A stretch of DNA of 24,000 bases from Pontiella desulfatans (GTDB lineage: Bacteria > Verrucomicrobiota > Kiritimatiellia > Kiritimatiellales > Pontiellaceae), in NCBI RefSeq assembly GCF_900890425.1, contig NZ_CAAHFG010000004.1, forward strand, positions 218,798 through 242,797. Reading direction: 5' to 3'. The notes beneath the pieces were generated by a model. That model was not told the origin of the DNA and searched no databases. It worked only from the letters and a program-made list of their open reading frames with translations. The translations under genes and the position numbers were made by a program. Shown here in pieces: positions 4,011 to 24,000 of the stretch (position 1 is its first letter; the number at the start of each line of letters is the position of its first letter).

Positions 4011-4601
4011 TTATGCCTCCTTGGGGGGTAGTGCCTGGGCGAACGCCTTGCGGAGGCGCTCGCGGTGCGCGAAAAGTATGATGACCGAAGCGCCGGCCAG
4101 GGCAGCCACCGTGTGGCCGGGGAGCTCCACCGCGTAGGCCACCAGCGGCAAAAGTGAAAACGCCGCCAGCCCGCTAAGGATGAATCCGCGGCGGAACACC
4201 ATCAGTACCCCGGTGAGCACGAGCAACAGCAAGGCAATGAAGGGATCGTAGGCGAGATAGGCGCCGATGGCGGTCGCAATGCCGCGCCCCCCGCGGAACT
4301 GCAACGGCAAGGGCCAGATGTGGCCGGCAATGACCGCAACCAGCACGAGCGAAACCGCGGGTTCGGCAATCTCGAACCTACGGGCGAGCATGATGGCCAC
4401 AAGACCTTTAAGGGAATCGCCCAGCATCGTGACGATGAATCCTGGCTTGCCCAGCACCCGACCGACATTGCGGGCGCCAACCCCGCCGCTTCCGCACTCG
4501 CGGATATCCAGCTTTTCCTTGAACCGGACCAGATAATAACCGGTGCAGATTCCGCCTAGCAGATAGGCGACCAGGATACAGATGATGTCTTTGCCAGCCA
4601 T
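4011..4601 (-). CDS. plsY: Glycerol-3-phosphate acyltransferase PlsY (acyl-phosphate dependent)
   Basis: 196 aa polytopic membrane protein with PlsY motifs: GSGGVGARNVGR (GSGN.GATN-like), KG. and HIWP. GGGGAG SD upstream. Confidence 0.85.
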   Translation of the reverse strand: MAGKDIICILVAYLLGGICTGYYLVRFKEKLDIRECGSGGVGARNVGRVLGKPGFIVTMLGDSLKGLVAIMLARRFEIAEPAVSLVLVAVIAGHIWPLPLQFRGGRGIATAIGAYLAYDPFIALLLLVLTGVLMVFRRGFILSGLAAFSLLPLVAYAVELPGHTVAALAGASVIILFAHRERLRKAFAQALPPKEA

Positions 4602-4633
4602 GTCACACTCCCCAGTATTGGCATAGTGTTAAC

Positions 4634-4661
4634 ACTCTAACAGCGCACGAATCTTTTTCAA
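4634..4661 (-). promoter_or_regulatory. Sigma70-like promoter for plsY with an overlapping 12-bp palindrome
   Basis: On the minus strand: TTGAAA-N16-TAGAGT. The perfect palindrome AGTGTTAACACT (4625-4636) overlaps the -10/+1 region. The start codon is about 26 nt downstream. Confidence 0.35.
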
Positions 4662-4683
4662 CGCGCAATTGAAGATTCTTGGC

Positions 4684-6228: not shown

Positions 6229-6279
6229 TTCAGAAACCTCTCCGGGAATGTCCCCCCGCCGTTCACCAACATCTTAACT

Positions 6280-7899: not shown

Positions 7900-9090
7900 T
7901 TAGGCCTGAACCAGGGAATCGGGGCTGGAGAAGTAGCCCAGGGCCGTATGGGCCTGCGGCACGCGGACGGAAACGATGGTTCCTTCGCCCACCCGGCTTT
8001 CGAACTGGAGCGAGCCGCGATGCTCCTCAATCACCTTTTTCGTAATGAAGAGCCCGAGCCCCGCACCTTTTTCGATGGTTGCCGTGTTATCGAATGGCTC
8101 GAAAATCCAGCGCAGGCTCTGCGCATCCACCCCGCACCCGTTGTCCTTGACCTTGATATCAATATCATTGTTGCTGATTGCAAACAGAACAACGATGCAG
8201 GGGGAAGATTGCTGGTCCAAGGCCTCGACGGCATTGTCGATCAGATTCTGGAGCGCCCGCTTGACCTGCAGCCGCTCACCCAGCATTTCATACTGGTCTT
8301 CAATGCCCTCGACCTGCACCGAGAATGAAATGTCGGAATGGGCCGCGGCATCGCGGAAACAATCGTTGATCAGCTTTGGAAGGTTCAGGCGCTGAAGCTG
8401 CGAGAAATCGAAGCGCCCCAATGCCCGCCAAGACTCCACCAACTCGGCGCAACGCTCAACGTTGGTTTCAATTTGGTCGAGATATTCGTTCATCTCATCG
8501 GAGGTGGATTCCTGCTTTTCCTTCAGCTCATAGTTGAGCAGGTCAAGGTAGCCGCGGATAATCGTGAGCGGATTCCGCAAGTCCCGAACCAGCTCGGAGG
8601 AGGCCGCCCCGAGCGAGGTCAGCTTGTTGGTCTTCCCGACCTCGCGGCTGAGCGACTGCGTCATCTTGTTCAGCTCTTCCTGGGCCTGTTTCTTCCGCGA
8701 ATGCAGCTTTGAGCGATCAACATATTTTTTAACAACCGCCTGGATTTCGTCGGTATCGAACGGTTTCTGGAGATAGTCGTTGGCGCCAAAGCGGATCGCC
8801 TGCTGGGCCGTGTCCAGGTCGCCGTAGCCGGTCAGCATAACAATGGAGACATTGGGGTTGATTGCACGGATTTCCTGCAACCCCTCGATGCCGCTCTTTT
8901 CCGGCATCCGGATATCCATGATCACGAGATCGGGTTCCTGCTCCCGGAGCAGCTCGACCCCGGCGTCCACGCGATCGGCCAGAAACATGTCGTAATCGTA
9001 CTTGAGCACCATCCGCAGGCTTTCGCGCGGGCCGCGCTCGTCGTCGATCACCAACACCGTTCCCAACTTTTCCTTCGTCTCCGCAATCAT
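7900..9090 (-). CDS. Receiver (REC) plus histidine-kinase-like hybrid lacking the phospho-acceptor His
   Basis: The REC domain is canonical: VIDDE, LVIMDIRMP, MLTG, QKPF. The HATPase_c domain is intact: N box QNLIDNAVEA, DNGCGV, IFEPF, GAGLGL. The H-box reads SSELVRDLRNPLT, with Arg (CGG, 8584-8586) where His is expected. Confidence 0.8.
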   Translation of the reverse strand: MIAETKEKLGTVLVIDDERGPRESLRMVLKYDYDMFLADRVDAGVELLREQEPDLVIMDIRMPEKSGIEGLQEIRAINPNVSIVMLTGYGDLDTAQQAIRFGANDYLQKPFDTDEIQAVVKKYVDRSKLHSRKKQAQEELNKMTQSLSREVGKTNKLTSLGAASSELVRDLRNPLTIIRGYLDLLNYELKEKQESTSDEMNEYLDQIETNVERCAELVESWRALGRFDFSQLQRLNLPKLINDCFRDAAAHSDISFSVQVEGIEDQYEMLGERLQVKRALQNLIDNAVEALDQQSSPCIVVLFAISNNDIDIKVKDNGCGVDAQSLRWIFEPFDNTATIEKGAGLGLFITKKVIEEHRGSLQFESRVGEGTIVSVRVPQAHTALGYFSSPDSLVQA

Positions 9091-10361: not shown

Positions 10362-10377
10362 AGCAACAGACGTGCCA
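10362..10377 (-). promoter_or_regulatory. Sigma54 (-24/-12) promoter for the FadL-like operon
   Basis: The minus strand reads TGGCAC-GTCTG-TTGCT, an exact TGGCAC-N5-TTGC consensus with GG-N10-GC spacing. The predicted TSS is near 10351, giving a leader of about 37 nt before the ATG. Confidence 0.75.
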
Positions 10378-10465: not shown

Positions 10466-10540
10466 GGAATGGGTTGCGGGCTTTTTAAGCCGCTTGGTTT
10501 CCAGAGTCTGGAATACCAATTTCAACGGGGGTTCAGGCGC

Positions 10541-11776
10541 GTGATCGGCAGAAACAGAGTAGTCATTACCGGCTTGGGGGTGCTCGCCGCCAACGGCATT
10601 GGCAAGGAGGCCTTCTGGAAGTCCCTCCTAGCCGGCGAGTCCGGCATCGGCCCCATCACCCAGTTCGATGCGAGTGAAATACCTTGGCAGATTGCTGGAG
10701 AAATCGACGGCTTTTCACCAACTGATTTCATTGATCCGAGTCTTAAGCCCAAAAGACAAAGTAGAAATACACAGATTGCCGCAGCAGCCACCGTCATGGC
10801 ACTTGAAGACGCAAAACTGTCCATGGATTCCTTGAAAAAGGTCGAACCCGTGCAAATCACACTTGGCATTAGCCTTGGGGGGCTCGATTTGGTGGAACAA
10901 CACACACGAAGGCTTGTCGAAAAGGGAGCCATGAAGGGACTGCCGACGGTTTCCGCGTGTGTGCACATTATCGCGTCGAGTTTCATCTCCGCCCTCCTCA
11001 AAGTGAAGACACAGATCAATGTTGTTTCGAACAGTTGCACAGGCGGACTTGATGCAATCGCCGCTGGAGCCGCAGCGATTAGACGCGGCGAAGTGGAATT
11101 GGCGATAGTAGGAGGAACCGATGCTGTCATCATACCTTCGGTTGTTACAGGATTAGGTTTTGCTGGCATGTTGACCGACAGTCACGATAATCCTAAAACC
11201 ATTAGCCGACCCTTTGATCTGACAAGGTGCGGAGGAGTGCTGGCGGAAGGCACGGGTATCGTGATCCTTGAAAGCCTAAATCATGCTCGAGAACGTGGAG
11301 CCCGGCAATATGCAGAAATCAGTGCCCATGGAACAGCAAGTGGCATCAACATGCAATTGCATGAGGGACTGGAAACCAGCATGCGGCGGGCAATGAGCAA
11401 TGCAGGTCTCTATCCACAAGACATATCCAACATCAACGCCCATGGCACCAGCGATCCGGATTTGGATATTGCGGAAACCGTGGCGATAAAGAATGTTCTT
11501 GGGAGCCACGCTTATAATATCCCCATCAACTCCATTAAAGGATCAACGGGAAATCCTTTAGCCGCAGGCGGTGCCCTCCAGGTCATTTCCAGCTGCCTTT
11601 CAATGGAGGTCGGCATAATACCTCCGACAACGAACCTTAGAGTACCTGATCCCGATTGTGATCTTGATTATGTCCCCGAAACACCCCGCCACTTTGAACC
11701 TTCTGTTACGTTGATTAATAGCCATGGCACAGGCGGAGTGAACAGTTCTATGGTCTTGGAGAAAATTAAACAGTGA
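10541..11776 (+). CDS. FabF/FabB-type beta-ketoacyl synthase, orphan, with a Cys-His-Asn active-site pattern
   Basis: Motifs: RVVITGLGV, active-site NSCTGG, NAHGTS, and SIKGSTGNPLAAGG (Asn where FabF has His). I prefer the GTG at 10541 (GGGGG about 10 nt upstream; N-terminus MIGRNRVVITG). The ORF track's ATG at 10469 is the alternative. The stop overlaps the next gene's start (GTGA). Confidence 0.8.
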   Translation: MIGRNRVVITGLGVLAANGIGKEAFWKSLLAGESGIGPITQFDASEIPWQIAGEIDGFSPTDFIDPSLKPKRQSRNTQIAAAATVMALEDAKLSMDSLKKVEPVQITLGISLGGLDLVEQHTRRLVEKGAMKGLPTVSACVHIIASSFISALLKVKTQINVVSNSCTGGLDAIAAGAAAIRRGEVELAIVGGTDAVIIPSVVTGLGFAGMLTDSHDNPKTISRPFDLTRCGGVLAEGTGIVILESLNHARERGARQYAEISAHGTASGINMQLHEGLETSMRRAMSNAGLYPQDISNINAHGTSDPDLDIAETVAIKNVLGSHAYNIPINSIKGSTGNPLAAGGALQVISSCLSMEVGIIPPTTNLRVPDPDCDLDYVPETPRHFEPSVTLINSHGTGGVNSSMVLEKIKQ

Positions 11777-14283
11777 TCCTAATCACACTACTTCTTATCT
11801 TGGCTATTGTGGTCAACCTTGGACTGGGCACTACGGTATACCTCACCAATCGGGCAAGAAAAGCGAACCAAAGTTATCTGGTTGCAACAATCTTTATGTC
11901 ACTGTGGCTCAGTGCCAATCTTATCATTCTCCATTCCACATCCGCCCACCTAGCTCACATAGGCATCGATGCCGCATCGGCTTTATCTGTTTGCATTCCA
12001 ACAACATTCCAGTTGCTTCGCCTTACGATCAAGTTTCCCGAATACTCTTGGAGATCGGTGCTGACCAGGTGCCATAAGCAAATTCTTTTCAATATTATTA
12101 CCGTTGCAGTCTGCTTCACGCCCTCATTCAGCCAATCAGTCATTCTTCCCGAACCAGGCGAACCGGGGCTGGTTCAACCAGTATATGGACCAGCCTTTCT
12201 CGTTTTCCTCGTATACATGCTTTCTTCCATAGCAGTGCTTGGATGCGGGGTTTTTAAAGACAGAAAACAAATTAGGGGAACACAACGACTAGAACTGGAA
12301 TTCCTCCTATTCGCCTGTCTGGCAGGTCTTAGCGTAGGCATCTTCCTAGGGACGGTTGTTTCACTGATCTCAAAATCATACAACTCAATCCCAATTGCAA
12401 ATTCTGCAAGCGTTTTCACAGTATCCATCATCGTTGCGTATGGCATAGCCATGCATAAAATCCTGACCGTTTCGACGCTCTTACGCAGATTCACCGCCTA
12501 TGCCCTGATCACGGTCTACCTAAGTGTGGTATATTTTATAACAGCAAGCATAATGCGATTCGCCTGTGAAGCACTTGAAATATCCATGACATTCCCCATT
12601 CATTTAACTTCGGCTCTTGCCGTAGCTTTTTCCATGCTTCCGGCCAGATCACGAATGCAGAAAGCAACAGACCTTCTATTTGGAGGAACAAACTACTTTA
12701 ATGTCCAGGACACGGTTCGAAAAGCCAGCGACATCTTCCAATCCGTTACAACAATAACCTCTCTGCTTGATCATTTCTCAAACTTACTCGTTAGTGCTTT
12801 CGGAACGGAGCGCGTTATAATTCTTACCGCTACCGACGGTGGATATAAGCAACAATACCCCTACCCTCTTGATAATGCTGTTTTCTTTTCTGAAAATAGT
12901 GCCTTGGTAGGAATGCTGGAAAGAAACCGAGATCCCGTCTGTGCAGAAAGCCTGCTACGTATCCGGGAGACCTCGGAAATCCATGACACGATCAAGAATC
13001 TCAAATCTTCTGATGCAAACATAGCGACAGGTGTTTTCTCAAAATCAAAATTGAATGGCATTGTTTTATTCGGAACGCGACACAAAGGCCGTATTTACGA
13101 CAAAACCGAGCAGGATGCGATTCAAATCCTCTGCAACCAATTTGCCGTGGCCTTTGAAAACGCCCAGCTTTATACCGAAATGCAGGATAGCAAAATCCGC
13201 AACGAAATCATGCTCGATCAGCTCGTGAGTGGTGTGATTGTTGCCAGCCCTGACCGGAAAATCACCCTGTTCAACCATGAAGCACAACGCATAACCGGCA
13301 TCGTCGAGTCGGAAGCGATCGGCCAGAACATCGACATTCTTCCCAAAGCCATTGCCATGGCTCTGGAAGAAACGTTGGAAGACAAAACCGGGCTCCGCAA
13401 TATCGATGCATCCCTCTATTCACCGGAAGTGAGGGAGGAAAGCGTAAGCATCCGGATGGGTTCCGCCTTCCTGTTCGGCCACGACGATAAACCCATGGGA
13501 GCCTTGCTCGTTTTCACCGACACTACCGAGTTGAAGGGCCTGGAAGAACAAGTCCGGCGCTCCGACCAGTTATCCAGCGTCGGTACGCTGGCCGCCGGCA
13601 TGGCGCATGAAATCAAGAATCCGCTCGTCACCATCAAAACCTTCACCCAGCTGCTGCCCAAACGATACGACGACGAAGATTTCAGACAGGAGTTTTCCAG
13701 CCTGGTTGCCCACGAAGTCTCGCGTATCGACGGCATCGTGAACGAGCTGCTCAGTTTCTCCAAACCGGCCAAACCGCACCTGGTCCCGATGAAACTCCAG
13801 CATACGATCGATCAGATCCTCAAGCTGACCCATGAGCAGATGGTGCAAAGCAACATCCAGCTCAAGAACAAATGCACTGCCGAAAACGACATGATCTTCG
13901 GCGATGCCAAGTTGCTTTCCCAAGCATTGATCAACCTCAACCTGAATGCGGCAGAGGCCATTGGCGAGGGCGGGACGATCACCGTTGGAACCCTCAATTG
14001 CACCTACCGGTTTGCCAATGGCGACTCTCCGGAGCATGCCAAAACCAAGCACTGCATCCGGCTGCAGATCACCGACACCGGCAAGGGCATCGAGCGCAAG
14101 GATCTCCAAAAAATCTTCGATCCATTCTTCACTAGCAAGAGCGAGGGCACCGGCATGGGGCTTTCCGTCGCCCATGGCATCATCAACGAACATCACGGGG
14201 TGATCGAGGTGGAGAGCGAACCCGGACTTGGCACCACGTTCTACGTCTACATCCCCTTGCTTGAGGAGGGTATTGCTTCATGA
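11773..14283 (+). CDS. Polytopic-membrane sensor histidine kinase (about 8-9 TM helices, GAF, PAS, HisKA, HATPase_c)
   Basis: By eye there are eight to nine hydrophobic helices in aa 1-290. A GAF-like segment ends ...FAVAFENAQLY. A PAS segment follows (VSGVIVASPDRKITLFNHEAQRITG). The H-box is MAHEIKNPL (His codon 13606-13608). N/G boxes: NLNLNAAEA, DTGKGI, GTGMGL. GGAGA SD lies 10 nt before the GTG. Confidence 0.85.
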   Translation: MILITLLLILAIVVNLGLGTTVYLTNRARKANQSYLVATIFMSLWLSANLIILHSTSAHLAHIGIDAASALSVCIPTTFQLLRLTIKFPEYSWRSVLTRCHKQILFNIITVAVCFTPSFSQSVILPEPGEPGLVQPVYGPAFLVFLVYMLSSIAVLGCGVFKDRKQIRGTQRLELEFLLFACLAGLSVGIFLGTVVSLISKSYNSIPIANSASVFTVSIIVAYGIAMHKILTVSTLLRRFTAYALITVYLSVVYFITASIMRFACEALEISMTFPIHLTSALAVAFSMLPARSRMQKATDLLFGGTNYFNVQDTVRKASDIFQSVTTITSLLDHFSNLLVSAFGTERVIILTATDGGYKQQYPYPLDNAVFFSENSALVGMLERNRDPVCAESLLRIRETSEIHDTIKNLKSSDANIATGVFSKSKLNGIVLFGTRHKGRIYDKTEQDAIQILCNQFAVAFENAQLYTEMQDSKIRNEIMLDQLVSGVIVASPDRKITLFNHEAQRITGIVESEAIGQNIDILPKAIAMALEETLEDKTGLRNIDASLYSPEVREESVSIRMGSAFLFGHDDKPMGALLVFTDTTELKGLEEQVRRSDQLSSVGTLAAGMAHEIKNPLVTIKTFTQLLPKRYDDEDFRQEFSSLVAHEVSRIDGIVNELLSFSKPAKPHLVPMKLQHTIDQILKLTHEQMVQSNIQLKNKCTAENDMIFGDAKLLSQALINLNLNAAEAIGEGGTITVGTLNCTYRFANGDSPEHAKTKHCIRLQITDTGKGIERKDLQKIFDPFFTSKSEGTGMGLSVAHGIINEHHGVIEVESEPGLGTTFYVYIPLLEEGIAS

Positions 14284-16271
14284 AAACCCTACCGTCATGC
14301 ATCCTATACAGCCGCGACGACGAACTCACCGGACGCCTGATCCGCATCTCGACCTCCGTCGTCGCCCTCCAGCTTATCGAGGAACCGGTCGACCTTGAAC
14401 AGTGGATCGCCCAATTTGGCGATACGGTGCTGCTTGCCGATCTACGGGCAACCAACTGCCTCGACATGCTTGCATCCATCCGGAAGGAAAAGCCGGCAAC
14501 CATCATCATTCCCATTGGAGCCGACCGGTCCGACCCAATGCTCGCGGTTGAGTGGCTCGAGCCCTTTGCCACCTTATCGCTCGAACCCGACCGCCGCGAA
14601 TTCCAGACCCTGCTAAAACAGGCCGTCGAATGCCTGGCCCTCCGCCAGAAAAACAAGGTGCTCGAGGAGGAGCTGGCGACCTTGAACGCCCGCAAGGTCG
14701 AGCAACGCCCCCAACCGCGCACCCTCTTCTCCGCCCCGCTGCAGAACTTTTCCAAAGCACAGCGGAATTTCGACAACATCGACATGCTGTTCGACAGTGT
14801 TGTCGAAGGCCTTGTTGCGACGGCACGCGTATCGCGCGCGGGCATTTTCATCAAGCCCGATTCGGGCGACGCATATCTCTACAAGGCCGGAACCCGCTGC
14901 CTGGCAACCACGGAAAAACTGCGAGTCCGGCCGGACAGTCCGTTCGTGCGCTGGCTGGAAATGAACACGCATCTGGTATCGCGCAAGACGCTCGAAAACG
15001 TTGCCGACCCCCAGGAACGCGCAATGCTCAAGCAGATGCTCGACTCGCTCGGCGCGGAAATCATCATCCCCCTATACGCAACCGGATGCATCAAGGGCTG
15101 GATCTTCGTCGGCCAGCGCTCCACCGGCATCCCGTTCGATATCGCCGACCTCGAAGACATGACCGGCCTGGCCGACCACATTTCCACCACGCTCGAAAAG
15201 GCGCTCAAGTACGAGGAAACCGCACTCCAGAAAGCCCTCGCCGAAACGGTGCTGCACACCATTCCGTTCGGCATCATCGCCTGCGACGAACATGCCATCC
15301 TGCGCTGGTTCAACACCACCGCGCGCGAAATCCTCAAACCGCAAAGCGAAGTCGTCATCGGCCAGCGCGCCGAAGTGCTGGGCAGCCGGATTGCAGACAT
15401 GCTCCGAAGCGCCGTCGGCGGCCAGCACATGCCCTGCACCAAGGAATGGACCGACAACCGCACCAAACTAACACTCGCCGCAGAAACACACTGCCTAACG
15501 GATGGCGGCTCCTGCGTCGGCGCCATGGTCATGCTACGCGATGTCACTGGCGTTAAGCTGCTCAAGGAAAAGGAAGAGCAGGTTGAGCGCGCCACCTTCT
15601 GGAACGAACTCGCCTCGAGCATGAGCCACGAAATCCGCAACCCCCTCGTGGCCATCAAGACCTTCTCGCAGTTGCTGCCTCAGCGATACGAAGATCCCGA
15701 TTTCCGCGCCGAATTCAGCAAACAGGTCACCACCGAGGTCGACCAACTCAACCAAATCATCGACAAGATCAACGAGTTCGCCAATCCGCCCAAACCCATC
15801 TTCCAACCCCTCGATATCCGCAAGCCCATCGAGCACGCCGTCACACGGATCCAATCTGAACTCAACCACGACAATCTCAAAATCCACCTCTCGGCCGACG
15901 AAACCGCCCTCCAGATCAATGGCGACACCACATCCATGGAGGAATGCATCTACCACCTGCTCAAGAACGCGGCGGAAAACCTCGCCAACAAACCCGGCTC
16001 GCGCATCAACGTCACGGTCAAAGGGCGCTCCCCCGAGAAGGGATCCGGGAACATCTACATCATGGTCACCGACAACGGCAGCGGGATCGACCCTTCGTTG
16101 CGCGACAAGATATTCTCGCCCTTCATCACCATCAAGGCGCTCGGCTTCGGCCTCGGCCTGCCGATCGCCAAACGCGCGGTCATCGACCACAACGGACAGA
16201 TGGACATCGAAAGCAGCTCCGGCGGAACCACTGTATCCATCACCCTCCCCGCCTCGGAGGAACAGGAATGA
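14280..16271 (+). CDS. Cytoplasmic sensor histidine kinase (degenerate receiver-like N-terminus, GAF, PAS, HisKA, HATPase_c), paralog of the preceding kinase
   Basis: ATGA overlap with the upstream stop, and a GAGGAGGG SD. The H-box MSHEIRNPLVAIKTFSQLLPQRYEDPDFRAEFS (His codon 15627-15629) is near-identical in pattern to HK1. N/G boxes: LLKNAAENL, DNGSGI, GFGLGL. No TM segments. Confidence 0.85.
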   Translation: MKTLPSCILYSRDDELTGRLIRISTSVVALQLIEEPVDLEQWIAQFGDTVLLADLRATNCLDMLASIRKEKPATIIIPIGADRSDPMLAVEWLEPFATLSLEPDRREFQTLLKQAVECLALRQKNKVLEEELATLNARKVEQRPQPRTLFSAPLQNFSKAQRNFDNIDMLFDSVVEGLVATARVSRAGIFIKPDSGDAYLYKAGTRCLATTEKLRVRPDSPFVRWLEMNTHLVSRKTLENVADPQERAMLKQMLDSLGAEIIIPLYATGCIKGWIFVGQRSTGIPFDIADLEDMTGLADHISTTLEKALKYEETALQKALAETVLHTIPFGIIACDEHAILRWFNTTAREILKPQSEVVIGQRAEVLGSRIADMLRSAVGGQHMPCTKEWTDNRTKLTLAAETHCLTDGGSCVGAMVMLRDVTGVKLLKEKEEQVERATFWNELASSMSHEIRNPLVAIKTFSQLLPQRYEDPDFRAEFSKQVTTEVDQLNQIIDKINEFANPPKPIFQPLDIRKPIEHAVTRIQSELNHDNLKIHLSADETALQINGDTTSMEECIYHLLKNAAENLANKPGSRINVTVKGRSPEKGSGNIYIMVTDNGSGIDPSLRDKIFSPFITIKALGFGLGLPIAKRAVIDHNGQMDIESSSGGTTVSITLPASEEQE

Positions 16272-16480
16272 AAACGCCCAAGGATATCCAGAATGCAGAG
16301 GGCCCAATCAACCTCGAAGAAGCCGTCGGGGATTTCGAACGCAACCTGATCGAGCAGGCGCTCGAAAAATGCAACGGCATCCAAACCCGGGCCGCGGAAC
16401 ACCTTGGCACCACCCGCCGCATCCTCCGCTACCGCATGGACAAACTCGGCATCAGGCCCCAGCGCGGCAAACATCCATAA
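16268..16480 (+). CDS. Stand-alone Fis/NtrC-type helix-turn-helix protein (70 aa)
   Basis: ATGA overlap with the HK2 stop. The sequence FERNLIEQALEKCNGIQTRAAEHLGTTRRILRYRMDKLGI matches the C-terminal HTH_8 pattern of NtrC-family activators. It lies in the same frame as listed ORF 15944-16480, but the upstream part of that ORF overlaps HK2. Confidence 0.7.
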   Translation: MKTPKDIQNAEGPINLEEAVGDFERNLIEQALEKCNGIQTRAAEHLGTTRRILRYRMDKLGIRPQRGKHP

Positions 16481-16541: not shown

Positions 16542-17027
16542 ATGGAAAACCTTTTAGCCGCCGTTGATTTCTCACAAACCACCGATACCGTCATTGAACA
16601 GGCCACACTCCTCGCCAATGCGCTCGGCTCAAAGCTCTGGATCCTGCACGTCACTTCCGACGAAACGCAGGCCATGGTCTACGAAGCCACCCAGGTCACC
16701 GGCTACTCCCCCGAATTCGTCAGCATGCCCGGCGATGTCCAGCTGGCCCGCGACCTCAGCGCCGAGGAAATCAAACGCGAGCACAAGGAGCTGCAGGGCA
16801 TCTCCTCCAAACTCCGGGCAGAGGGCGTCGATGCCCAGGCCCTGTTGCTCAAGGGCGATGCCGCCAAAACCATCGTCGAAAAGGCGAAGGAACTCCGGTC
16901 TGGAATAATCATCCTCGGCTCGCACGGCCATGGCCTGTTGCATAAGGCCTTGCTGGGCAGCGTCTCCGAGGCCGTGATGCACCACGCCAAATGCAACGTC
17001 CTCGTCGTTCCTCGGGCCGGGAAATAG
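16542..17027 (+). CDS. Universal stress protein (UspA family)
   Basis: 161 aa with an N-terminal LLAAVDFS and the C-terminal ATP-binding-type motif GSHGHGLLHKALLGSVSEAVMHHAKCNVLVV. Confidence 0.85.
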   Translation: MENLLAAVDFSQTTDTVIEQATLLANALGSKLWILHVTSDETQAMVYEATQVTGYSPEFVSMPGDVQLARDLSAEEIKREHKELQGISSKLRAEGVDAQALLLKGDAAKTIVEKAKELRSGIIILGSHGHGLLHKALLGSVSEAVMHHAKCNVLVVPRAGK

Positions 17028-17126: not shown

Positions 17127-18125
17127 ATGTTGCAGACCATCATAGAAAAAGCCGTTGCCGGAACCGGATGCACGCCTGAAGACGCTCCTGGGCTGATCGA
17201 AGCCAACGAAGCCGACCTCTTTGCCGGCGCCACGCAAATCCGCGAAGCCCACTTCGGCAACACCATCCAGCTCTGCTGCATCATCAACGCCAAAAGCGGC
17301 AAGTGCGACATGGACTGCCGCTTCTGCTCCCAGAGCGGGCACAACTCCACCGAAATCGAAGTCTACCCCTTCATGGAAACCGTGGATCTACAAAACCAAA
17401 TCCACGAAAACATCAAGAACGGCGACCGCATGTGCGGCGTCGTCACCAGCGGCGGAAAACTCTCAACCGCGGAACTCAAGCAACTCGCCGAAACCGTCAA
17501 GCGGATTGGCGGCGGCGAACAGGCTCCCATCTGCGGCTCCCTCGGACGGCTCCCCCCCGAAGACCTCTCCATGCTCAAGCAATCCGGCGTCACCCGCTTC
17601 CACCACAACCTCGAAACCTCCGAAAACCACTATCCGCAAATCTGCTCCACCCAGGAATGGTCGCAACGGCTCGAAACCGTCAAAGCCGCCCAGGCCGCCG
17701 GACTCAAGGTGTGCAGTGGCGGGCTCTTCGGCCTCGGCGAAAGCTGGCACGATCGCATCGACCTCGCCCTCACCCTGCGCGAACTCGGCGTCGATAGCGT
17801 CCCCATCAACTTCCTCTACGCCCATCCCGGCACCCCCTTGAAAGACCGGCAGCAACTCTCCCCGGCGGAAGCCCTGCGCATCATCGCCCTCTACCGCTTC
17901 CTCTTGCCAACCGTCACCCTGCGCATCTGCGGCGGACGCTCCCACATTCTCGCCCATCGCCAGGCCGACATCTTCGCCGCCGGAGCCAACGGCCTCATGA
18001 CCGGCAACTACCTCACCGTCGCCGGCAGCCAATACGAATCCGACCTCCAATTGATCCAATCCCTCGGCCTCGAAATCGCCCCCCCCCAATCCCCGCCTCC
18101 GTCACGCCCGCGCTCACGATCGTGA
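17127..18125 (+). CDS. bioB: Biotin synthase
   Basis: Radical SAM motif NAKSGKCDMDCRFCSQS. BioB signature FHHNLETS...Y..I. Cys residues are positioned for the auxiliary cluster (CGVV, ICGSLG, VCSGG). There is an unusual Pro/Ser/Arg-rich C-terminal tail after a C9 run. Confidence 0.85.
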   Translation: MLQTIIEKAVAGTGCTPEDAPGLIEANEADLFAGATQIREAHFGNTIQLCCIINAKSGKCDMDCRFCSQSGHNSTEIEVYPFMETVDLQNQIHENIKNGDRMCGVVTSGGKLSTAELKQLAETVKRIGGGEQAPICGSLGRLPPEDLSMLKQSGVTRFHHNLETSENHYPQICSTQEWSQRLETVKAAQAAGLKVCSGGLFGLGESWHDRIDLALTLRELGVDSVPINFLYAHPGTPLKDRQQLSPAEALRIIALYRFLLPTVTLRICGGRSHILAHRQADIFAAGANGLMTGNYLTVAGSQYESDLQLIQSLGLEIAPPQSPPPSRPRSRS

Positions 18126-18198: not shown

Positions 18199-19422
18199 AT
18201 GGAATCACCATCCATAGTACCGAGCGATGTCATCCTCGAAAGCATATCCGACGGCGTGTTCACGGTTGGAAACGACTGGCGCATCGCCTCGTTCAACCGG
18301 GCGGCGGAACAGATAACCGGCGTTCCGCGCAAGGAGGCCATTGGACGGCTCTGCTCGGAAGTATTCCGCTCCAGCATGTGTGAAGGCGCCTGCGCACTGC
18401 GCAAAACCCTCGAGACCGGCCAACCGCTCATTGCCCACGCCTGCTACATCGTCAACGCCGATGGCGAGCGCATCCCCGCAAGCGTCTCGACCGCCGTGCT
18501 CAAAGATGAAGCCGGCAACATGATCGGGGGGGCCGAAACCTTCCGCGACCTCAGCGAAATCGAAACCCTGCGCAAACAAATCTCCGGCCGCTACACCCTT
18601 GGCGACCTCATCAGCCACAGCCACGCCATGCAGCCGGTCTACGAGATGACCTCCTCCGTCGCCAATTCCAACATCACCGCCCTCATCCATGGCGAAACCG
18701 GCACCGGCAAGGAGTTGCTCGCCAGAGCCATCCACGGCATGAGCCCCCGCTCCGCCAAACCCTTCGTCGCCATCAACTGTGCCGCCCTGCCCGACACCCT
18801 GCTCGAATCCGAACTCTTCGGCTATAAAAAGGGCGCCTTCACCGGCGCCGTGCAGGATCGCGAAGGCAGATTTGCCCAGGCCAGGGACGGCACGGTCTTC
18901 CTTGATGAAATCGGCGAAATCAGCCCCGCCCTGCAGGTGCGGCTGCTTCGCGTCTTGCAGGAACACACCTACGAACCGCTCGGCAGCAACGAAACCCGGC
19001 GCACCGAGGCCCGCATCATTGCCGCCACGCACCGCGATCTCTCCGCGTTGGTTGAAAGCGGCGAATTTCGCGAAGACCTCTTCTACCGCATCAATGTCAT
19101 CCGCATCGACCTCCCCCCCCTGCGCAGCCGCAAGGAAGACCTTCCCCTGCTCATCGACCACTTCATTGAACGCTTCAACCGCATTCACAACAAAAACATT
19201 GCCGGGCTATCCAACGGGGCCAACTCGTTGCTCATGGCCCACGACTGGCCGGGCAATGTCCGCGAGCTCGAAAACATCGTCGAGCGCGCCTTTGTCCTAT
19301 GCAATGGCACGCAGATTGAAATACGCCACCTCCCCCCGGTGGGCAGCCGAGCCCCCGCCACCCCGAACATCTACCCGACATCGGCACCGCCCGCCGTAGC
19401 GCCGAAGCCCGGACTATTTTGA
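18199..19422 (+). CDS. Sigma54-dependent enhancer-binding protein (PAS plus AAA+), reading frame interrupted before its HTH
   Basis: PAS domain with four Cys. Walker A GETGTGKE, sigma54-contact loop GAFTGA, and [10 protein letters not shown]. The ORF ends in a low-complexity Pro/Ala tail at TGA 19420-19422 with no DNA-binding domain. Confidence 0.85.
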
Positions 19423-19535
19423 AAACCCTCGAAAAAAACAACTTCAACCGCCTTGCCACCGCCCACGAACTCGGTATCCACAAAACCACCCTATACCGAA
19501 AAATTAAGGCACTCGGACTCTCCCTTCCCCACTAA
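19320..19535 (+). other. Displaced Fis-type HTH coding segment of the sigma54 activator (different frame)
   Basis: The frame whose codons start at multiples of 3 reads ...[48 protein letters not shown], the expected EBP C-terminal HTH. It is open from 19320 to TAA 19533-19535. It has no start codon of its own. Confidence 0.75.
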
Positions 19536-19536
19536 G

Positions 19537-19580
19537 GTATATCATCCAACCACCACGATCGTGGTGGTTGGATGATATAC
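19537..19580 (+). terminator. 44-bp perfect palindrome (22-bp arms, no spacer), probable terminator of the activator gene
   Basis: GTATATCATCCAACCACCACGA/TCGTGGTGGTTGGATGATATAC, verified base by base. It starts 2 nt after the HTH-frame stop and is followed by TTT only. Confidence 0.5.
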
Positions 19581-19594
19581 TTTCATGCGGACTT

Positions 19595-19641
19595 GGGTTG
19601 CTAAAATGCAACCCTGGCCACCGATATGGTTGCATTTTAGC
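19595..19641. repeat. Nested inverted repeats built on GGTTGC/GCAACC, candidate enhancer (UAS) sites
   Basis: GGGTTGC-TAAAAT-GCAACCC occupies 19595-19614. A 14-nt arm GCTAAAATGCAACC (19600-19613) is perfectly complementary to GGTTGCATTTTAGC (19628-19641), with a 14-nt spacer. The repeats lie about 115-160 nt upstream of the sigma54 promoter's predicted TSS. Confidence 0.4.
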
Positions 19642-19731
19642 TACCCTCCCACCTCATCGCCCCCACACGTTGTATTACGCAAGAGGCTTTCTGTTATGGA
19701 CTTGCGAATCCGATGCCCCGGCATCCGCCGC

Positions 19732-19746
19732 TGGCACCGTTGTTGC
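19732..19746 (+). promoter_or_regulatory. Sigma54 (-24/-12) promoter for the NifX-like/MinD-ferredoxin cluster
   Basis: TGGCAC-CGTTG-TTGC(T), an exact consensus with GG-N10-GC spacing, in the intergenic region directly downstream of a sigma54 activator gene. Confidence 0.7.
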
Positions 19747-19760
19747 TATAGGGGTGGCAG

Positions 19761-20114
19761 ATGAAAGCTGCACTCACAGATTGGCAAGGACGCATTGCCC
19801 CCGTATTCGACGTGGCGGGGAATGTTCTGATCGTCGGCCAGGATGGCCGGGAGCAATCCATGGCCCTGCCGGCTGATTATCCCGAGAGCAAGCTGGCCTT
19901 TCTTAAGGAGCAGCAGGTCGATGTCTTGATTTGCGGTGCGATCTCGCGCCGGGTGCAGAAATATGCGGAGGAACTCGGAATCCGGGTGAACCCCTTCGTC
20001 TCCGGCGAAGTCCGGGAGGTTTGGGAGGCGTGGAAAAGCGGCCAGCTCGACGAAGCCTGCTATTCGATGCCCGGCTGCCGCCGATGCCGCAGACGCAACG
20101 GACAGTGCAATTAA
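19761..20114 (+). CDS. NifB/NifX-family (dinitrogenase FeMo-cofactor-binding-like) small protein with a Cys-rich C-terminal tail
   Basis: MKAALTDWQGRIAPVFDVAGNVLIV... plus VDVLICGAIS match the NifX-like/MTH1175-like small-protein pattern. The tail is CYSMPGCRRCRRRNGQCN. Confidence 0.65.
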   Translation: MKAALTDWQGRIAPVFDVAGNVLIVGQDGREQSMALPADYPESKLAFLKEQQVDVLICGAISRRVQKYAEELGIRVNPFVSGEVREVWEAWKSGQLDEACYSMPGCRRCRRRNGQCN

Positions 20115-20128
20115 CAAGGAGGCATAAC

Positions 20129-20419
20129 ATGCCACGAGGAAACGGAACAGGGCCGGTTGGTGCCGGCCCCATGACAGGAAAAGGCGTGGGATACTGCGCC
20201 GGCAACCATGCGCCGGGATGGCAAACATCCGGCGGCGGAGGAATGCAACGCGGATTGCGCCGAAACGGGAAGCCGCGCGGCTTTTTCCGCAACCATGCCC
20301 AGCATGCCGTCGCATCGGCCGATGCCATGCTGTTGCAGGAAGGGATCGATGCCCTGCACGCAAAGCTTGCATCGCTCGAACAACAACTCGCCGGACTCGG
20401 CGGACAACAGGAAGACTGA
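20129..20419 (+). CDS. DUF5320-family protein (Gly-rich N-terminus, coiled-coil C-terminus)
   Basis: AAGGAGG SD at 20116-20122. The N-terminus MPRGNGTGPVGAGPMTGKGVGYCAG matches my recollection of the DUF5320 signature. The C-terminus is heptad-like (IDALHAKLASLEQQLAGL). The longer listed ORF (19931) overlaps the previous gene. Confidence 0.65.
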   Translation: MPRGNGTGPVGAGPMTGKGVGYCAGNHAPGWQTSGGGGMQRGLRRNGKPRGFFRNHAQHAVASADAMLLQEGIDALHAKLASLEQQLAGLGGQQED

Positions 20420-20420
20420 A

Positions 20421-20783
20421 ATGAAAATCGCCATTACCACCGCCGGGGACAATCTGGACGCCGCGGTCGACACCCGATTCGGGCGCGCACCGCAGTTCCT
20501 GATCTACCATTCCAAAACCGGCTCATTCACCATTAGGAAAAACACGCAGAACCTGAACGCCGCGCAAGGTGCGGGCATCCAGTCGGCCGTCAACCTGACC
20601 GATGAGCAAGTCGATTGCGTCATTACCGGAAACTGCGGCCCGAAGGCCTATGCCACGCTCGATGCCGCCGGGATCAAGGTTTACACCTGCTCCGGCACCA
20701 CCGTTGGCGAGGCCATCGAAATGCTCAAGCGCAACGAGTTGAAGCCGTCCGCAGAAGCCAACGTGGAAGGTCATTGGGCGTAA
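20421..20783 (+). CDS. NifB/NifX-family (FeMo-cofactor-binding-like) small protein
   Basis: MKIAITTAGDNLDAAVDTRFGRAPQFLIY..., VDCVITGNCGPKA and AGIKVY form the classic NifX-like domain pattern. The ATG lies 1 nt after the previous stop. Confidence 0.8.
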   Translation: MKIAITTAGDNLDAAVDTRFGRAPQFLIYHSKTGSFTIRKNTQNLNAAQGAGIQSAVNLTDEQVDCVITGNCGPKAYATLDAAGIKVYTCSGTTVGEAIEMLKRNELKPSAEANVEGHWA

Positions 20784-20852
20784 GTAGCAAAAGCTACCGG
20801 TCAAAAGCCGAAAGTCCCAAGGTCTAGCGTCTGACCTTCGGCCTTCGGCTTT
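20784..20852 (+). other. Structured intergenic element (hairpins plus tandem heptamers) inside the cluster
   Basis: GTAGC-AAAA-GCTAC occupies 20784-20797. AAAGCCGAA (20804-20812) pairs with TTCGGCTTT (20844-20852), enclosing AAGGTC-N8-GACCTT. Tandem CCTTCGG x2 and TCCGACC x2 follow. Confidence 0.4.
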
Positions 20853-20876
20853 CCGACCTCCGACCACAAAACCATC

Positions 20877-21746
20877 ATGCAAACCTACACCGAATGCATT
20901 CCCTGTTTTGTTCGCCAGGCGCACGACGCGTTGCGGCAGGTTGCAAAGGAAGACGAGGAGCTCGTGCTCCGTACGCTTCAGCGCGTATTGCGCGAAGCCG
21001 CCGAGTTTCCGCTTTCGAGCACGCCGCCCGCCATGGCCCAGGCCACCCATCGCATTATCCGCGAGGAATCGGGCAATCCCGATCCCTATGCGGAAATCAA
21101 GGCCGAATCCACCCGGTTGGCACTCGGGCTGGCCAGCGAGGCGCGCAAGGTGATTTCCTCCGCCATCGATCCGTTCAAGATGGCGGTGCGATTCTCCATT
21201 GCCGGCAACATCATGGATTTTGCGCTAATGGCCAACTGGGATAAACTCGACCTCGACAACTTTATTGAACAGACCCGCCTGCAGCCCGTTGACGATGAGG
21301 CGCTTGAAAAACTACGGAACGCCGTGCGCCAAGCGCGTTCGATCCTGGTTCTGGGCGACAATGCCGGGGAGGCGGTCTTCGACAAGCTGTTGATCGAGCA
21401 CCTTGGCGGTGCAGACATGTTCTATGCGGTCAAAGGTTCGCCGGTGATCAACGATGTCACGTTGGAGGATGCCAAAGCCTCCGGCCTTGATGAGGTTGCC
21501 ACGCTGGTTGAAAACGGCTCCGATGCCCCGGGCACGATCCTCGAAGACTGCAACACCACATTCCGCGGACTGTTTCATGAAGTCGGGCTCGTGATTGCCA
21601 AGGGGCAGGCCAACTATGAAACACTGAGCCGTTGCCCCCGTCCGCTCTTTTTCTTGACGCAGGTCAAATGCCCGGTCATCGGAAGAGATCTCGACGAACC
21701 GGTCGGCACCTGGGTGGTGCGCGAACACAAAGGAACGAAACGATGA
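20877..21746 (+). CDS. DUF89/ARMT1-like metal-dependent (damage-control) phosphatase family protein
   Basis: N-terminal C.PC (ECIPCFVRQ), then AGNIMDF, LGDNAGEAVFD, GSPVINDVT and AKGQANYE signatures. No obvious SD upstream. Confidence 0.7.
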   Translation: MQTYTECIPCFVRQAHDALRQVAKEDEELVLRTLQRVLREAAEFPLSSTPPAMAQATHRIIREESGNPDPYAEIKAESTRLALGLASEARKVISSAIDPFKMAVRFSIAGNIMDFALMANWDKLDLDNFIEQTRLQPVDDEALEKLRNAVRQARSILVLGDNAGEAVFDKLLIEHLGGADMFYAVKGSPVINDVTLEDAKASGLDEVATLVENGSDAPGTILEDCNTTFRGLFHEVGLVIAKGQANYETLSRCPRPLFFLTQVKCPVIGRDLDEPVGTWVVREHKGTKR

Positions 21747-22576
21747 AAATTGCAATTGCATCCGGCAAAGGGGGAACGGGGAAAACCACCCTCTCCTGCG
21801 CTATGGCGCTCTCCGTGTCGGAGGAAGTGTTCCTGCTCGACTGCGATGTCGAGGAGCCGAACAGCCACTTCTTCATCCGCCCGACCATCGGGCGGACGGA
21901 AAAAACATACAGCCTCGTTCCCGAGGTCGATGCGGAAACGTGCACCGGCTGCGGGGAGTGCGGGCGTGTTTGCCAGTTCAGCGCCATTGTGTCGCTCGGG
22001 AAAAAAACCATGGTCTTCAACGAGCTGTGCCACAGCTGCGGCGCCTGCAGCCGCATCTGCCCCTCCGGGGCCATCCGGGAGACCCCGAAGAAGACCGGGC
22101 TGCTGACCATTGGGCGGAGAGACCACATCACGTTTGTATCCGGTCGTCTCGATGTTGGCCAGGCCATGTCGCCGCCGGTCATCCGCGAGACCTTGAAACA
22201 CGCAAGCAAGGACGGACTGACCATCGTGGATTGCCCTCCCGGCACCTCGTGCCCGTTCGTGACGGCGGTCAAGGGGTGCGATGCCGTGCTGCTTGTCACG
22301 GAGCCGACGCCTTTCGGCCTGCACGACTTGAAGCTCGCCGTCGAGACGATCCGCGAGCTGGGCATCCCGTTCGCGGTGGTCGTCAACCGCTCAAACGGCG
22401 AGCGCAACCGCATCAGTGAATATTGCGAGATGGAAGGCATTGAGCTTCTGCTGCAGATTCCCGAAGACCGCCGCGTCGCCGAGGCCTATTCCCGCGGCGC
22501 CGCCCTCACCACCGCCCTGCCCGAACTAAAGGAAACCATTGCTTCGCTTCCGGAAAAAATGAAGGCTCTTGCATGA
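21743..22576 (+). CDS. MinD/ParA-superfamily P-loop ATPase with an inserted 2x[4Fe-4S] ferredoxin domain
   Basis: Deviant Walker A SGKGGTGKT, plus CTGCGECGRVC and CHSCGACSRICP motifs. ATGA overlap with the upstream stop. Confidence 0.85.
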   Translation: MKIAIASGKGGTGKTTLSCAMALSVSEEVFLLDCDVEEPNSHFFIRPTIGRTEKTYSLVPEVDAETCTGCGECGRVCQFSAIVSLGKKTMVFNELCHSCGACSRICPSGAIRETPKKTGLLTIGRRDHITFVSGRLDVGQAMSPPVIRETLKHASKDGLTIVDCPPGTSCPFVTAVKGCDAVLLVTEPTPFGLHDLKLAVETIRELGIPFAVVVNRSNGERNRISEYCEMEGIELLLQIPEDRRVAEAYSRGAALTTALPELKETIASLPEKMKALA

Positions 22577-23427
22577 AAGAACTCGTGATCATCAGCGGGA
22601 AGGGTGGTACGGGGAAGACGAGCATCACCGCCTCGTTCGCGGCTTTGGCCGAGTTTGCCGTGCTGGCCGACTGCGATGTCGATGCCGCCGACCTGCATCT
22701 TGTCCTGAGCCCCAACATTCAAACCAGCACGACCTTCACCAGCGGCCACGCCGCCGAAATCCGCGCGGCCGACTGTACGCAGTGCGGTCTATGCGAAGAG
22801 CTCTGCCGTTTCGATGCCATCCGTAATTTCCAGGTCGATCCGTTGAGCTGCGAAGGGTGCGGGGCCTGCGTCGAATTCTGCCCGGTCAAGGCGATCGACT
22901 TTCCGGAGCAGGATTGCGGCGAATGGCATGTTTCGGCCACGCGCAACGGCGAGATGGTGCATGCGCGCATGCATCCCGGCGCGGAAAACTCCGGCAAGCT
23001 CGTCAGCCTCGTCCGGCAGGAGGCGCGCAAGATCGCCATCCGGCAAAACAGCGCATTTCTTCTGGTGGACGGCCCGCCCGGCATCGGTTGCCCGGTGATC
23101 GCCTCCATTACGGGCGCCGATGCCGTGCTGGTTGTCTCGGAGCCGACGCTCTCCGGCGAGCACGACCTGAAGCGCGTGCTGGAGCTGGCCAACCATTTCA
23201 AGATTCCGGCGATGGTCTGCATCAACAAGTGGGACATCAACGCAGTGATGACGCAGCGGATCGAGCAAACCGCCCGGGAACTGGGGGCGACGCCCGTCGG
23301 GCGCATTCCATATGACCCGGCGGTGACCACCGCGCAGATCAACGCCCGGGCGTTGGTCGAGGATTCCGACGGCGAGGCCGCCCGGGCCGTTCGCGAAACC
23401 TGGAGCACCGTATGTTCGACGATATGA
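22573..23427 (+). CDS. MinD/ParA-superfamily P-loop ATPase with an inserted 2x[4Fe-4S] ferredoxin domain (paralog)
   Basis: SGKGGTGKT, CTQCGLCEELC and CEGCGACVEFCP motifs. ATGA overlap with the upstream stop. Confidence 0.85.
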   Translation: MKELVIISGKGGTGKTSITASFAALAEFAVLADCDVDAADLHLVLSPNIQTSTTFTSGHAAEIRAADCTQCGLCEELCRFDAIRNFQVDPLSCEGCGACVEFCPVKAIDFPEQDCGEWHVSATRNGEMVHARMHPGAENSGKLVSLVRQEARKIAIRQNSAFLLVDGPPGIGCPVIASITGADAVLVVSEPTLSGEHDLKRVLELANHFKIPAMVCINKWDINAVMTQRIEQTARELGATPVGRIPYDPAVTTAQINARALVEDSDGEAARAVRETWSTVCSTI

Positions 23428-23834
23428 TGGCTGCCATCGAAGAGCGCGCGAAATATTTTGGCCCGATGCGGGATGCCAATGCCTATGCCAAGGTGCATGG
23501 CGAGTGCAACGACACGGCGGAGGTCTGGCTGCGCATCGACGGGGGGCGGGTCCGGAAGGGTTCGTTCATGACCGACGGATGCGGCTATTCCAAGCATTGC
23601 TGCGCGACCGCCGTCAAACTGGCCGAGGGCATGAAAACGGAGGACGCCGCGGCCATGACGCAGGAGCAAGTGCTCGAAGCCACCGGCCCGCTGCCGGAAG
23701 ACCACCGGCATTGCGCCCTGCTCGCGGCCAACACGGTTCGGCAAGCCATCGACAACTTCCAAAACGCAACCCCGAAGGTTCCGTTGAGCGAACGGCTGAA
23801 ACAACTTTTGGACAAGGAGCGTGGCCATGCCTGA
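23412..23834 (+). CDS. NifU/IscU N-terminal-domain-like Fe-S scaffold protein
   Basis: Three Cys in IscU-like positions (GECND, DGCGYS, HRHCALLA) and the KT.DA helix. The in-frame ATG at 23424 would give an ATGA overlap with the upstream stop, so it is an alternative start. Confidence 0.7.
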   Translation: MFDDMMAAIEERAKYFGPMRDANAYAKVHGECNDTAEVWLRIDGGRVRKGSFMTDGCGYSKHCCATAVKLAEGMKTEDAAAMTQEQVLEATGPLPEDHRHCALLAANTVRQAIDNFQNATPKVPLSERLKQLLDKERGHA

Positions 23835-24000
23835 AAACGAACACCGCAACTGCCTGCTCTGCGGCGATCTTAATCCGCGGTCGCTCGGCCTCCGGTTCGA
23901 GCCCCATGGAGACGATGGCGTTCGTGCGGAATTCCAGGGGCACGAGGATTTGCAGGGCTACGACGGTATCCTGCACGGCGGAATCATTGCCTCGTTGCTG
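23827..24000 (+). CDS. PaaI/4HBT-type hotdog-fold thioesterase, 5' part (continues beyond the window)
   Basis: CLLCGDLNPRSLGLRF...LQGYDGILHGGIIASLL matches the PaaI-family N-terminus. It overlaps the upstream gene by 8 nt. The frame is open to the window end. Confidence 0.6.
   Translation, partial: MPENEHRNCLLCGDLNPRSLGLRFEPHGDDGVRAEFQGHEDLQGYDGILHGGIIASLL

Follow-up and report, generated by a model that had tools for sequence, protein, structure and literature searches.

The gene cluster that follows a sigma-54-dependent activator gene in a 24-kb stretch of Pontiella desulfatans (Kiritimatiellota) DNA, the whole of which is hereafter called the window, is in our reading the ORP (orange protein) system of this bacterium together with its regulator OrpR, an identification to which we attach a probability of about 0.8. 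A first-pass annotation made from the sequence had placed eight of these genes at 19732-24000 in a cluster of unknown function without demonstrated role. That description has to be abandoned because the activator signature, an orange protein homologue and the paired ferredoxin-ATPases are present and the tenth gene of the operon passes the curated NCBI model for MrpORP; OrpR itself is a characterised regulator (PMC8359166, PMC3897727).

The reference system is that of Desulfovibrio vulgaris Hildenborough, in which two orp operons (DVU2107-2109 and DVU2105-2103) are transcribed divergently around orpR. OrpR (DVU2106) is a sigma-54 activator that senses redox through a [4Fe-4S] PAS domain and controls a defined regulon (PMC8359166, PMC3897727); its activity is confined to low redox potential, its regulon in D. 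vulgaris consists of the orp operons only, and OrpR was described as apparently restricted to delta-proteobacteria (PMC8359166). Orp3 and Orp4 (DVU2103 and DVU2104) are paralogous ATPases with two [4Fe-4S] ferredoxin motifs each, for which a C-terminal amphipathic helix has been claimed; DVU2105 encodes Orp5, a small protein of the [2Fe-2S] type (Dde_3197 in D. alaskensis). The orange protein, Orp8 (DVU2108), binds a Mo-Cu-sulfide cluster non-covalently, and Orp9 (DVU2109) is MrpORP, which combines Mrp/NBP35 and Di-Nase domains and passes Fe-S clusters to Orp3 and Orp4 (PMC6345978). Pontiella resembles this system in several respects: an activator of PAS-[Cys3+Glu]-AAA+-HTH architecture adjoins its targets, a sigma-54 promoter is preceded by palindromic, putative activator sites approximately 90-150 bp upstream (at -131 and -88 in D. 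vulgaris Hildenborough), and the genes encode an orange protein, MrpORP, a small Cys-rich protein that is probably the counterpart of Orp5, and a pair of MinD-type ATPases with 2x[4Fe-4S] ferredoxins.

Gene content of the operon

Domains in the window were assigned with Pfam, with spot checks by NCBIfam/TIGRFAM models, sequence searches against the PDB and HHalign. The region beyond the window was read from public contigs 100% identical to it, position 1 of contig L001 being window position 19555. Genes given by window coordinates are on the plus strand unless stated otherwise.

The operon comprises ten genes and extends about 2.3 kb past the end of the window. Its last gene (L001 5516-6703, 395 aa) is a fusion of ParA/NUBPL and Nitro_FeMo-Co domains that scores 529.3 bits against the equivalog model NF041136 MrpORP (cut-off 450), covering model positions 1-364 of 365. 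It carries the motifs GKGGVGKS, CPKC, HFGHC and PPHEPGLLP and a C-terminal CDH; the motif set of MrpORP is named in PMC6345978. The first-pass annotation had held its view of the cluster to be at risk if a nitrogenase or another known maturation pathway lay just outside the window. A known maturation factor, MrpORP, is indeed encoded there within the same operon, and no nitrogenase adjoins it.

The third gene (20421-20783; PF02579, 80.5 bits) encodes an Orp8-type orange protein with the MTH1175-like NifX fold, here also called NifX-like B. It matches the D. gigas orange protein (2WFB) over its full length (E=1.3e-14, residues 2-106, identity approximately 36%) and the MTH1175/TM1290 family about as well (MTH1175, E=3.4e-16; 1RDU, E=1e-15). 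The D. gigas protein holds a [S2MoS2CuS2MoS2] cluster non-covalently (PMC6345978), and this homology gives some ground for supposing that the NifX-fold proteins bind Mo-Cu-S or similar clusters and that the system deals with thiometallates (sulfides of Mo, W or Cu) in sulfidic environments, for detoxification, storage or the supply of Mo and W. That OrpR turns its operon on at a low, sulfide-poised redox potential (PMC8359166) and that the NifX fold carries the iron-molybdenum cofactor in nitrogenase systems are consistent with such a role. However, the window holds no molybdate or tungstate transporter, no molybdenum cofactor (Moco) gene and no Moco riboswitch, an Rfam scan of the window having returned no family at all; the physiological relevance of the Mo-Cu cluster is itself unproven, and the IscU-like scaffold and Mrp carrier of the same operon point to Fe-S chemistry. 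We therefore consider thiometallate handling unlikely, and equally so its corollary that the ATPases would power the loading or release of such clusters.

The two ATPases, each with an inserted 2x[4Fe-4S] ferredoxin (CbiA/ParA plus Fer4), are encoded at 21743-22576 (ATPase 1, 100% identical to PDESU_05404) and 22573-23427 (ATPase 2). Both have a deviant Walker A motif, GKGGTGKT, and two CX2CX2CX3C motifs, which read CTGCGECGRVC and CHSCGACSRIC in ATPase 1 and CTQCGLCEELC and CEGCGACVEFC in ATPase 2. By sequence, their nearest solved relatives are archaeal MinD and FlhG/FleN, and they also hit the archaeal MinD model TIGR01969 (minD_arch). These relationships, together with the cell-division role proposed in the Desulfovibrio papers, where inactivation of OrpR leads to morphological defects and MrpORP is polar (PMC8359166, PMC6345978), could mean that the system serves primarily to control cell division in space: during anaerobic growth the MinD-like ATPases and polar MrpORP would place the septum, and the clusters would be only redox-sensing or structural. 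We doubt this. The ATPases fall far under the cut-offs of the MinD models (59-60 bits vs 201.75 for TIGR01969, 38-51 vs 212.9 for TIGR01968), neither MinC, MinE nor other division genes are found in the operon or its flanks, and the conserved partners are mostly cluster-binding or assembly proteins (three NifX-fold proteins, the IscU-like protein and Mrp). The published division phenotype in Desulfovibrio may moreover be indirect.

The first gene (19761-20114) encodes a divergent NifX/MTH1175-like protein of 117 aa, NifX-like A, whose PF02579 score of 26.8 bits is just above the cut-off; in profile comparison with the ORP family it reaches an HHalign probability of 96.5% (E=9e-10). It has an invariant Cys58 and a Cys-rich tail, CYSMPGCRRCRRRNGQC, in which the MPGC motif is nearly invariant among homologues. 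It fits the description of Orp5 and is probably its counterpart. In many homologues (among others those of L011, L014, L016, L018 and L021) a long Gly/Arg-rich linker leads to a terminal zinc-ribbon-like domain, CxCPxCG...PH..G.PC....CPxCG, which the Pontiella protein does not have. Judged from their sequences, the five known components of the ORP complex are thus putatively encoded: an Orp5-like protein, an Orp8-like protein, two Orp3/4-like ATPases and MrpORP (Orp9).

Five further genes have no counterpart among the D. vulgaris operons, except that the DUF5320 protein may correspond to Orp7. This protein (20129-20419; PF17253, 69 bits) has a Gly-rich N-terminus and a helical C-terminal part, and a literature search on DUF5320 found nothing relevant. 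A DUF89/ARMT1-like metal-dependent phosphatase is encoded at 20877-21746 (PF01937, 201.7 bits), its nearest structures being PH1575 and AF1104 (PDB 2G8L and 2FFJ, E approximately 1e-36). An IscU/NifU_N-type Fe-S scaffold follows the ATPases at 23412-23834 (PF01592, 51 bits): it aligns with A. fulgidus IscU (4EB5, E=2e-13) at all of the three ligand cysteines, the aspartate and the histidine, but stays under the IscU/NifU equivalog cut-offs (57.9 bits vs 187.9) and, in contrast to ISC-type IscU, has no cysteine desulfurase partner in its operon and is embedded in an ORP operon. Next come a hotdog (4HBT) thioesterase, 135 aa in full, whose gene (23827-24000) is cut by the window end, and an MBL-fold protein of 280 aa (L001 4677-5519) closest to the uncharacterised 2P4Z and TM1679.

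The PF02579 domains and the NifU_N scaffold also call to mind nitrogenase, and P. desulfatans does have nifDHK elsewhere in its genome; the operon might accordingly be an accessory maturation module for a nitrogenase or nitrogenase-like enzyme encoded at a distance, with NifX-like carriers and a NifH-like function for the ATPases. The fold family is indeed common to the NifX/NafY/NifB-C carriers and to Pontiella, whose operon holds three copies of the domain. Yet nifHDK, nifEN and nifB are not adjacent: the window, as the first-pass annotation had correctly stated, holds no nitrogenase genes, nor do the 10 kb downstream. The P. desulfatans strain did not fix nitrogen, and the OrpR regulon of D. 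vulgaris is limited to the orp operons and follows redox conditions rather than nitrogen (PMC8359166). A nitrogenase-related role is accordingly very improbable.

All eight plus-strand genes that had been listed earlier from the window, with their domains, are present in Pfam searches, although NifX-like A is marginal. Their packing is tight, with intergenic spacings from NifX-like A to the thioesterase of +14, +1, +93, -4, -4, -16 and -8 nt, which bears out the close packing described for the cluster, although two gaps (+14 and +93 nt) are larger than had been stated. The MBL gene overlaps the thioesterase gene by 4 nt and is itself overlapped by 4 nt by the MrpORP gene. Neither sigma-70-like promoters nor plus-strand terminators were found inside the cluster. 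A terminator hairpin with a T-rich tail (L001 6763-6785) lies about 60 nt past the MrpORP stop codon, and the next genes form a MoxR/DUF58/BatA-D operon. The limits first drawn at 19732 and 24000 thus have to be moved on both sides: the unit begins upstream, with orpR and the sites at 19597-19644, and its ten genes carry it about 2.3 kb past the window.

Regulator, upstream sites and promoter

The activator gene orpR (18199-19535) encodes a sigma-54 enhancer-binding protein with PAS, AAA+ and HTH_8 parts, of which the Pfam families PAS, Sigma54_activat and AAA_lid are detected at 18199-19422; the Cys-rich PAS activator previously noted next to the cluster is therefore real. Its residues C52, E54, C61 and C65 form the OrpR signature at exactly the published positions (PMC8359166), and the pattern C-x-[ED]-x6-C-x3-C is present in all 120 of the 120 best activator homologues. 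The Pontiella protein reads GAFTGA where that of D. vulgaris reads GAFTDA.

In the window orpR is frameshifted: the open reading frame stops at 19422, and the HTH_8 segment lies in another frame that ends at 19535. The NCBI protein ('ZraR', 407 aa) carries the same frameshift. A short-read Logan contig of the same organism, L007, encodes an intact OrpR of 446 aa with HTH_8 and is otherwise identical to the window over 6.4 kb. Comparison of L007 (6174-6280) with the window (19330-19400) shows that L007 has an extra AGC after approximately 19339 and one more C at approximately 19360, the latter falling in a C-run 21 nt after the AGC difference. Either the assembly is in error here or the frameshift is a true inactivating variant. 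The orpR stop codon is overlapped by a palindrome at 19526-19591 (33-nt arms, 88% complementary, 0 nt between the arms), which may be a hairpin terminator or an insulator; short-read contigs break inside it, L007 ending at 19563 and L001 starting at 19555.

Two 16-bp palindromes follow. The first is GTTGCTAAAATGCAAC (19597-19612, centre approximately -153), and the second, GTTGCATTTTAGCTAC (19629-19644, centre approximately -121), is placed 32 bp from it; both have the form GTTGC-N6-GCNAC. In a survey of 58 loci with shuffled controls and at most one mismatch, GTNGC-N6-GCNAC was found in 55 loci (6.8 in shuffles), and paired sites spaced 32-33 bp in 38 (0.4 in shuffles). The two palindromes are predicted to be upstream activating sites bound by OrpR.

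A predicted sigma-54 promoter of the -24/-12 type, TGGCACCGTTGTTGCT, lies at 19732-19747 on the plus strand. Its core, TGGCACCGTTGTTGC (19732-19746), matches TGGCAC-N5-TTGC exactly, as had been reported; 0.12 such matches are expected per window and two were found. In 54 of the 57 loci surveyed, a -24/-12 element that scores 17 or more out of 20 stands ahead of the orthologous first gene.

MKxAFxxWxxRIAPVFD, an N-terminus shared by 57 homologues, places the beginning of the first gene at 19761. A shorter call in L001 (84 aa, from Met34) clashes with this N-terminus and was rejected. The -12 GC is at 19745-19746 and the element ends 13 nt before the ATG; from these positions the predicted transcription start falls at approximately 19758, about 3 nt before the start codon. 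Distances of 11-13 nt from motif end to ATG also occur in P. sulfatireligans (L008) and in L009, L067 and L071, and Shine-Dalgarno-like sequences are absent at the short-leader promoters of L067 and L071; in the majority of the remaining loci the distance is 22-50 nt and a Shine-Dalgarno sequence is clearly present. The simplest reading of the short spacing, which it suggests in Pontiella, is a leaderless or near-leaderless sigma-54 transcript.

Distribution and synteny of OrpR-ORP loci

An alignment of the OrpR PAS domain was used to scan one genome per species and gave at least 574 confirmed loci, of which the best 80 (L008-L087) were examined. These best 80 include Kiritimatiellota, Lentisphaerota, many Desulfobacterota (none of them Desulfovibrio), Acidobacteriota/Aminicenantes, Omnitrophota, Nitrospirota, Fibrobacterota, Planctomycetota, Zixibacteria, WOR-3, Fermentibacteria, Bacillota and others. 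The distribution of OrpR thus exceeds the published delta-proteobacterial range (PMC8359166).

For a synteny count, six-frame open reading frames were searched with the Pontiella proteins; the count covers the 49 loci whose sequence extends 7 kb or more downstream of orpR, and hits that follow orpR on its own strand with the gene order kept. NifX-like A was found in 40 loci, ORP in 34, ATPase 1 in 33 and ATPase 2 in 31, and these four core genes occur together in 30 of the 49, in many phyla, which makes a single operon downstream of orpR the common layout among the examined loci. Mrp and/or Di-Nase genes were counted in 33 loci, DUF5320 in 22, MBL in 18, NifU_N in 15, DUF89 in 11 and 4HBT in 7. 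The recurring order is orpR, Cys-tailed NifX-like gene, DUF5320, ORP, optionally DUF89, the two ATPases, and then, each optional, NifU-like, Mrp/Di-Nase, thioesterase and MBL. The extra genes are therefore recurrent accessories and not chance neighbours.

In other lineages MrpORP is represented by separate Mrp and Di-Nase genes or by a fusion with NifU_N. A NifU_N-like domain is fused in-frame to MrpORP in L016 (17439-19199), L051 (14618-15940) and L082 (5915-7612); the fusion includes the Di-Nase domain in L016 and L082 but not in L051. Together with the conserved IscU ligands of the Pontiella scaffold, these fusions lend support to a hand-off from scaffold to carrier.

The extent of the unit is delimited by a Kiritimatiellales metagenome-assembled genome, L010, which retains the flanking genes on both sides (two histidine kinases, the universal stress protein, bioB and orpR on one, moxR on the other) and has neither the promoter with its upstream sites nor any of the ten operon genes. 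Its junction at 6150-6165 corresponds to window position approximately 19520 and to L001 position approximately 6777, so that the missing segment begins directly behind orpR and reaches to the terminator hairpin. Upstream sites, promoter and ten genes are thus delimited as one unit. L010 is a clean presence/absence polymorphism in which orpR is left without a target.

A cluster without OrpR was also observed in L088 (6942-10519), the closest hit with a contig in a protein search with the D. gigas ORP, with the order DUF134, hypothetical gene, ORP, ATPase, ATPase and NifX-like gene. Its ORP is 75% identical to that of D. gigas and, as in Pontiella, lies directly upstream of two ferredoxin-ATPases. 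The ORP core accordingly also occurs with a different putative regulator.

Proposed mechanism and points against the identification

By homology to D. vulgaris, OrpR would carry a redox-sensitive [4Fe-4S] cluster on the three PAS cysteines, bind the palindromes at 19597-19644 and, at low redox potential, remodel sigma-54 RNA polymerase at the promoter (19732-19747), which would drive the ten genes as a single operon ending at the hairpin past MrpORP. Clusters would be assembled on the IscU-like scaffold and handed to MrpORP, which would load the ferredoxin domains of both SIMIBI-type ATPases; these would spend ATP on loading or moving the metal-sulfur clusters that the NifX-fold proteins (three domains) bind non-covalently. 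Clusters would in this way be handled only in cells whose redox state is low enough for cluster survival. That the operon carries its own maturation line, from scaffold through MrpORP and the ATPases to the NifX-fold proteins, is by analogy with the published system a proposition to which we give even odds. The first-pass annotation had proposed ATP-driven handling of an Fe-S or other metal cluster for an unidentified client: the general idea agrees with published work on ORP (PMC6345978), and the system now has a name. The readings that invoke cell division, thiometallates or nitrogenase are not all mutually exclusive.

A number of points weigh against equating the Pontiella cluster with the ORP system. 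The organisation differs, one co-directional ten-gene operon replacing the two divergent three-gene operons of D. vulgaris, and so does the half-site, GTTGC in Pontiella and GGCGC in D. vulgaris Hildenborough, whose motif GGGCGYRTTTTGCGCCC is not matched. The IHF consensus WATCAANNNNTTR (at most one mismatch) is absent from 19645-19731, a weak test because the functional sites of D. vulgaris Hildenborough are themselves only 67-78% similar to the consensus. With a leader of approximately 3 nt, the apparent Shine-Dalgarno sequence of the first gene would not be transcribed. If real, the frameshift leaves the OrpR of this strain without a DNA-binding domain. The Di-Nase domain of the Pontiella MrpORP does not have the first Cys of CXHFGHCE, and no cysteine desulfurase is encoded in the operon. 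The orthology proposed for the Orp5-like, Orp3/4-like and DUF5320 proteins rests on domain architecture, motifs and synteny, and what is said here of expression, metal content and interactions is transferred from Desulfovibrio in its entirety. Finally, the DUF89, thioesterase, MBL-fold and DUF5320 proteins have no explained role in the ORP system.

A much more speculative reading, which we think improbable, goes further. Extended ORP operons would be a self-contained, redox-gated metal-sulfur assembly line of strict anaerobes running parallel to ISC and SUF, in which the DUF89, thioesterase and MBL-fold proteins make or recycle a thiol or phospho ligand and the first gene is leaderless. Such a line may be a dedicated route of biogenesis or storage, leading from the IscU-like protein to MrpORP, the ferredoxin-ATPases and the NifX-fold proteins.

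Neighbouring genes

Upstream of orpR the window holds two histidine kinase genes (11773-14283 and 14280-16271), a stand-alone HTH_8 (Fis-type) protein of 70 aa (16268-16480), a universal stress protein (16542-17027) and the biotin synthase gene bioB (17127-18125). The HTH_8 gene is translationally coupled to the second histidine kinase, an arrangement kept in P. sulfatireligans. The gene at 17127-18125 was considered as a radical-SAM maturase for the cluster and rejected, being an ordinary bioB (TIGR00433, 362 bits vs a cut-off of 225). Linkage of bioB and the stress protein gene to orpR is restricted to Pontiellaceae-like genomes (bioB in 3 of 49 loci, the stress protein in 2 of 49).

The second exact sigma-54 promoter of the window, TGGCACGTCTGTTGC (10363-10377, minus strand), is located about 50 nt ahead of what is probably the true start (approximately 10314) of a gene for a FadL-like outer-membrane transporter, after which comes a REC-histidine kinase hybrid (7900-9090). 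A lipid-related group of genes occupies 2388-7896 (minus strand) and 10469-11776; it includes a 540-aa protein with a FeeM-like N-acyl amino acid synthase domain, PlsY, a 514-aa radical SAM protein and a FAD_binding_4 protein, with a FabF-like ketoacyl synthase nearby.

Conclusions

What is new here is modest: a system member in the Kiritimatiellota, a phylum new to it (that of D. vulgaris is the Desulfobacterota), with a single co-directional operon, recurrent accessory genes, fusions of NifU-like domains with MrpORP in other genomes, a promoter whose predicted start lies about 3 nt ahead of the ATG and an orpR frameshift in the assembly. An apparently unknown eight-gene cluster has become a named and partly characterised system, and a false claim of novelty was averted. 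Sulfate reducers and delta-proteobacteria are not the only carriers of the OrpR-ORP module, which is found in many anaerobic phyla, with no fewer than 574 OrpR-type loci. The IscU-like scaffold in 15 of 49 loci and the fusions with MrpORP in three support the proposed Fe-S delivery by MrpORP and suggest a source for the clusters, and the recurrent DUF89, thioesterase and MBL genes offer leads on the function of the ORP complex, a question that is now about 20 years old.

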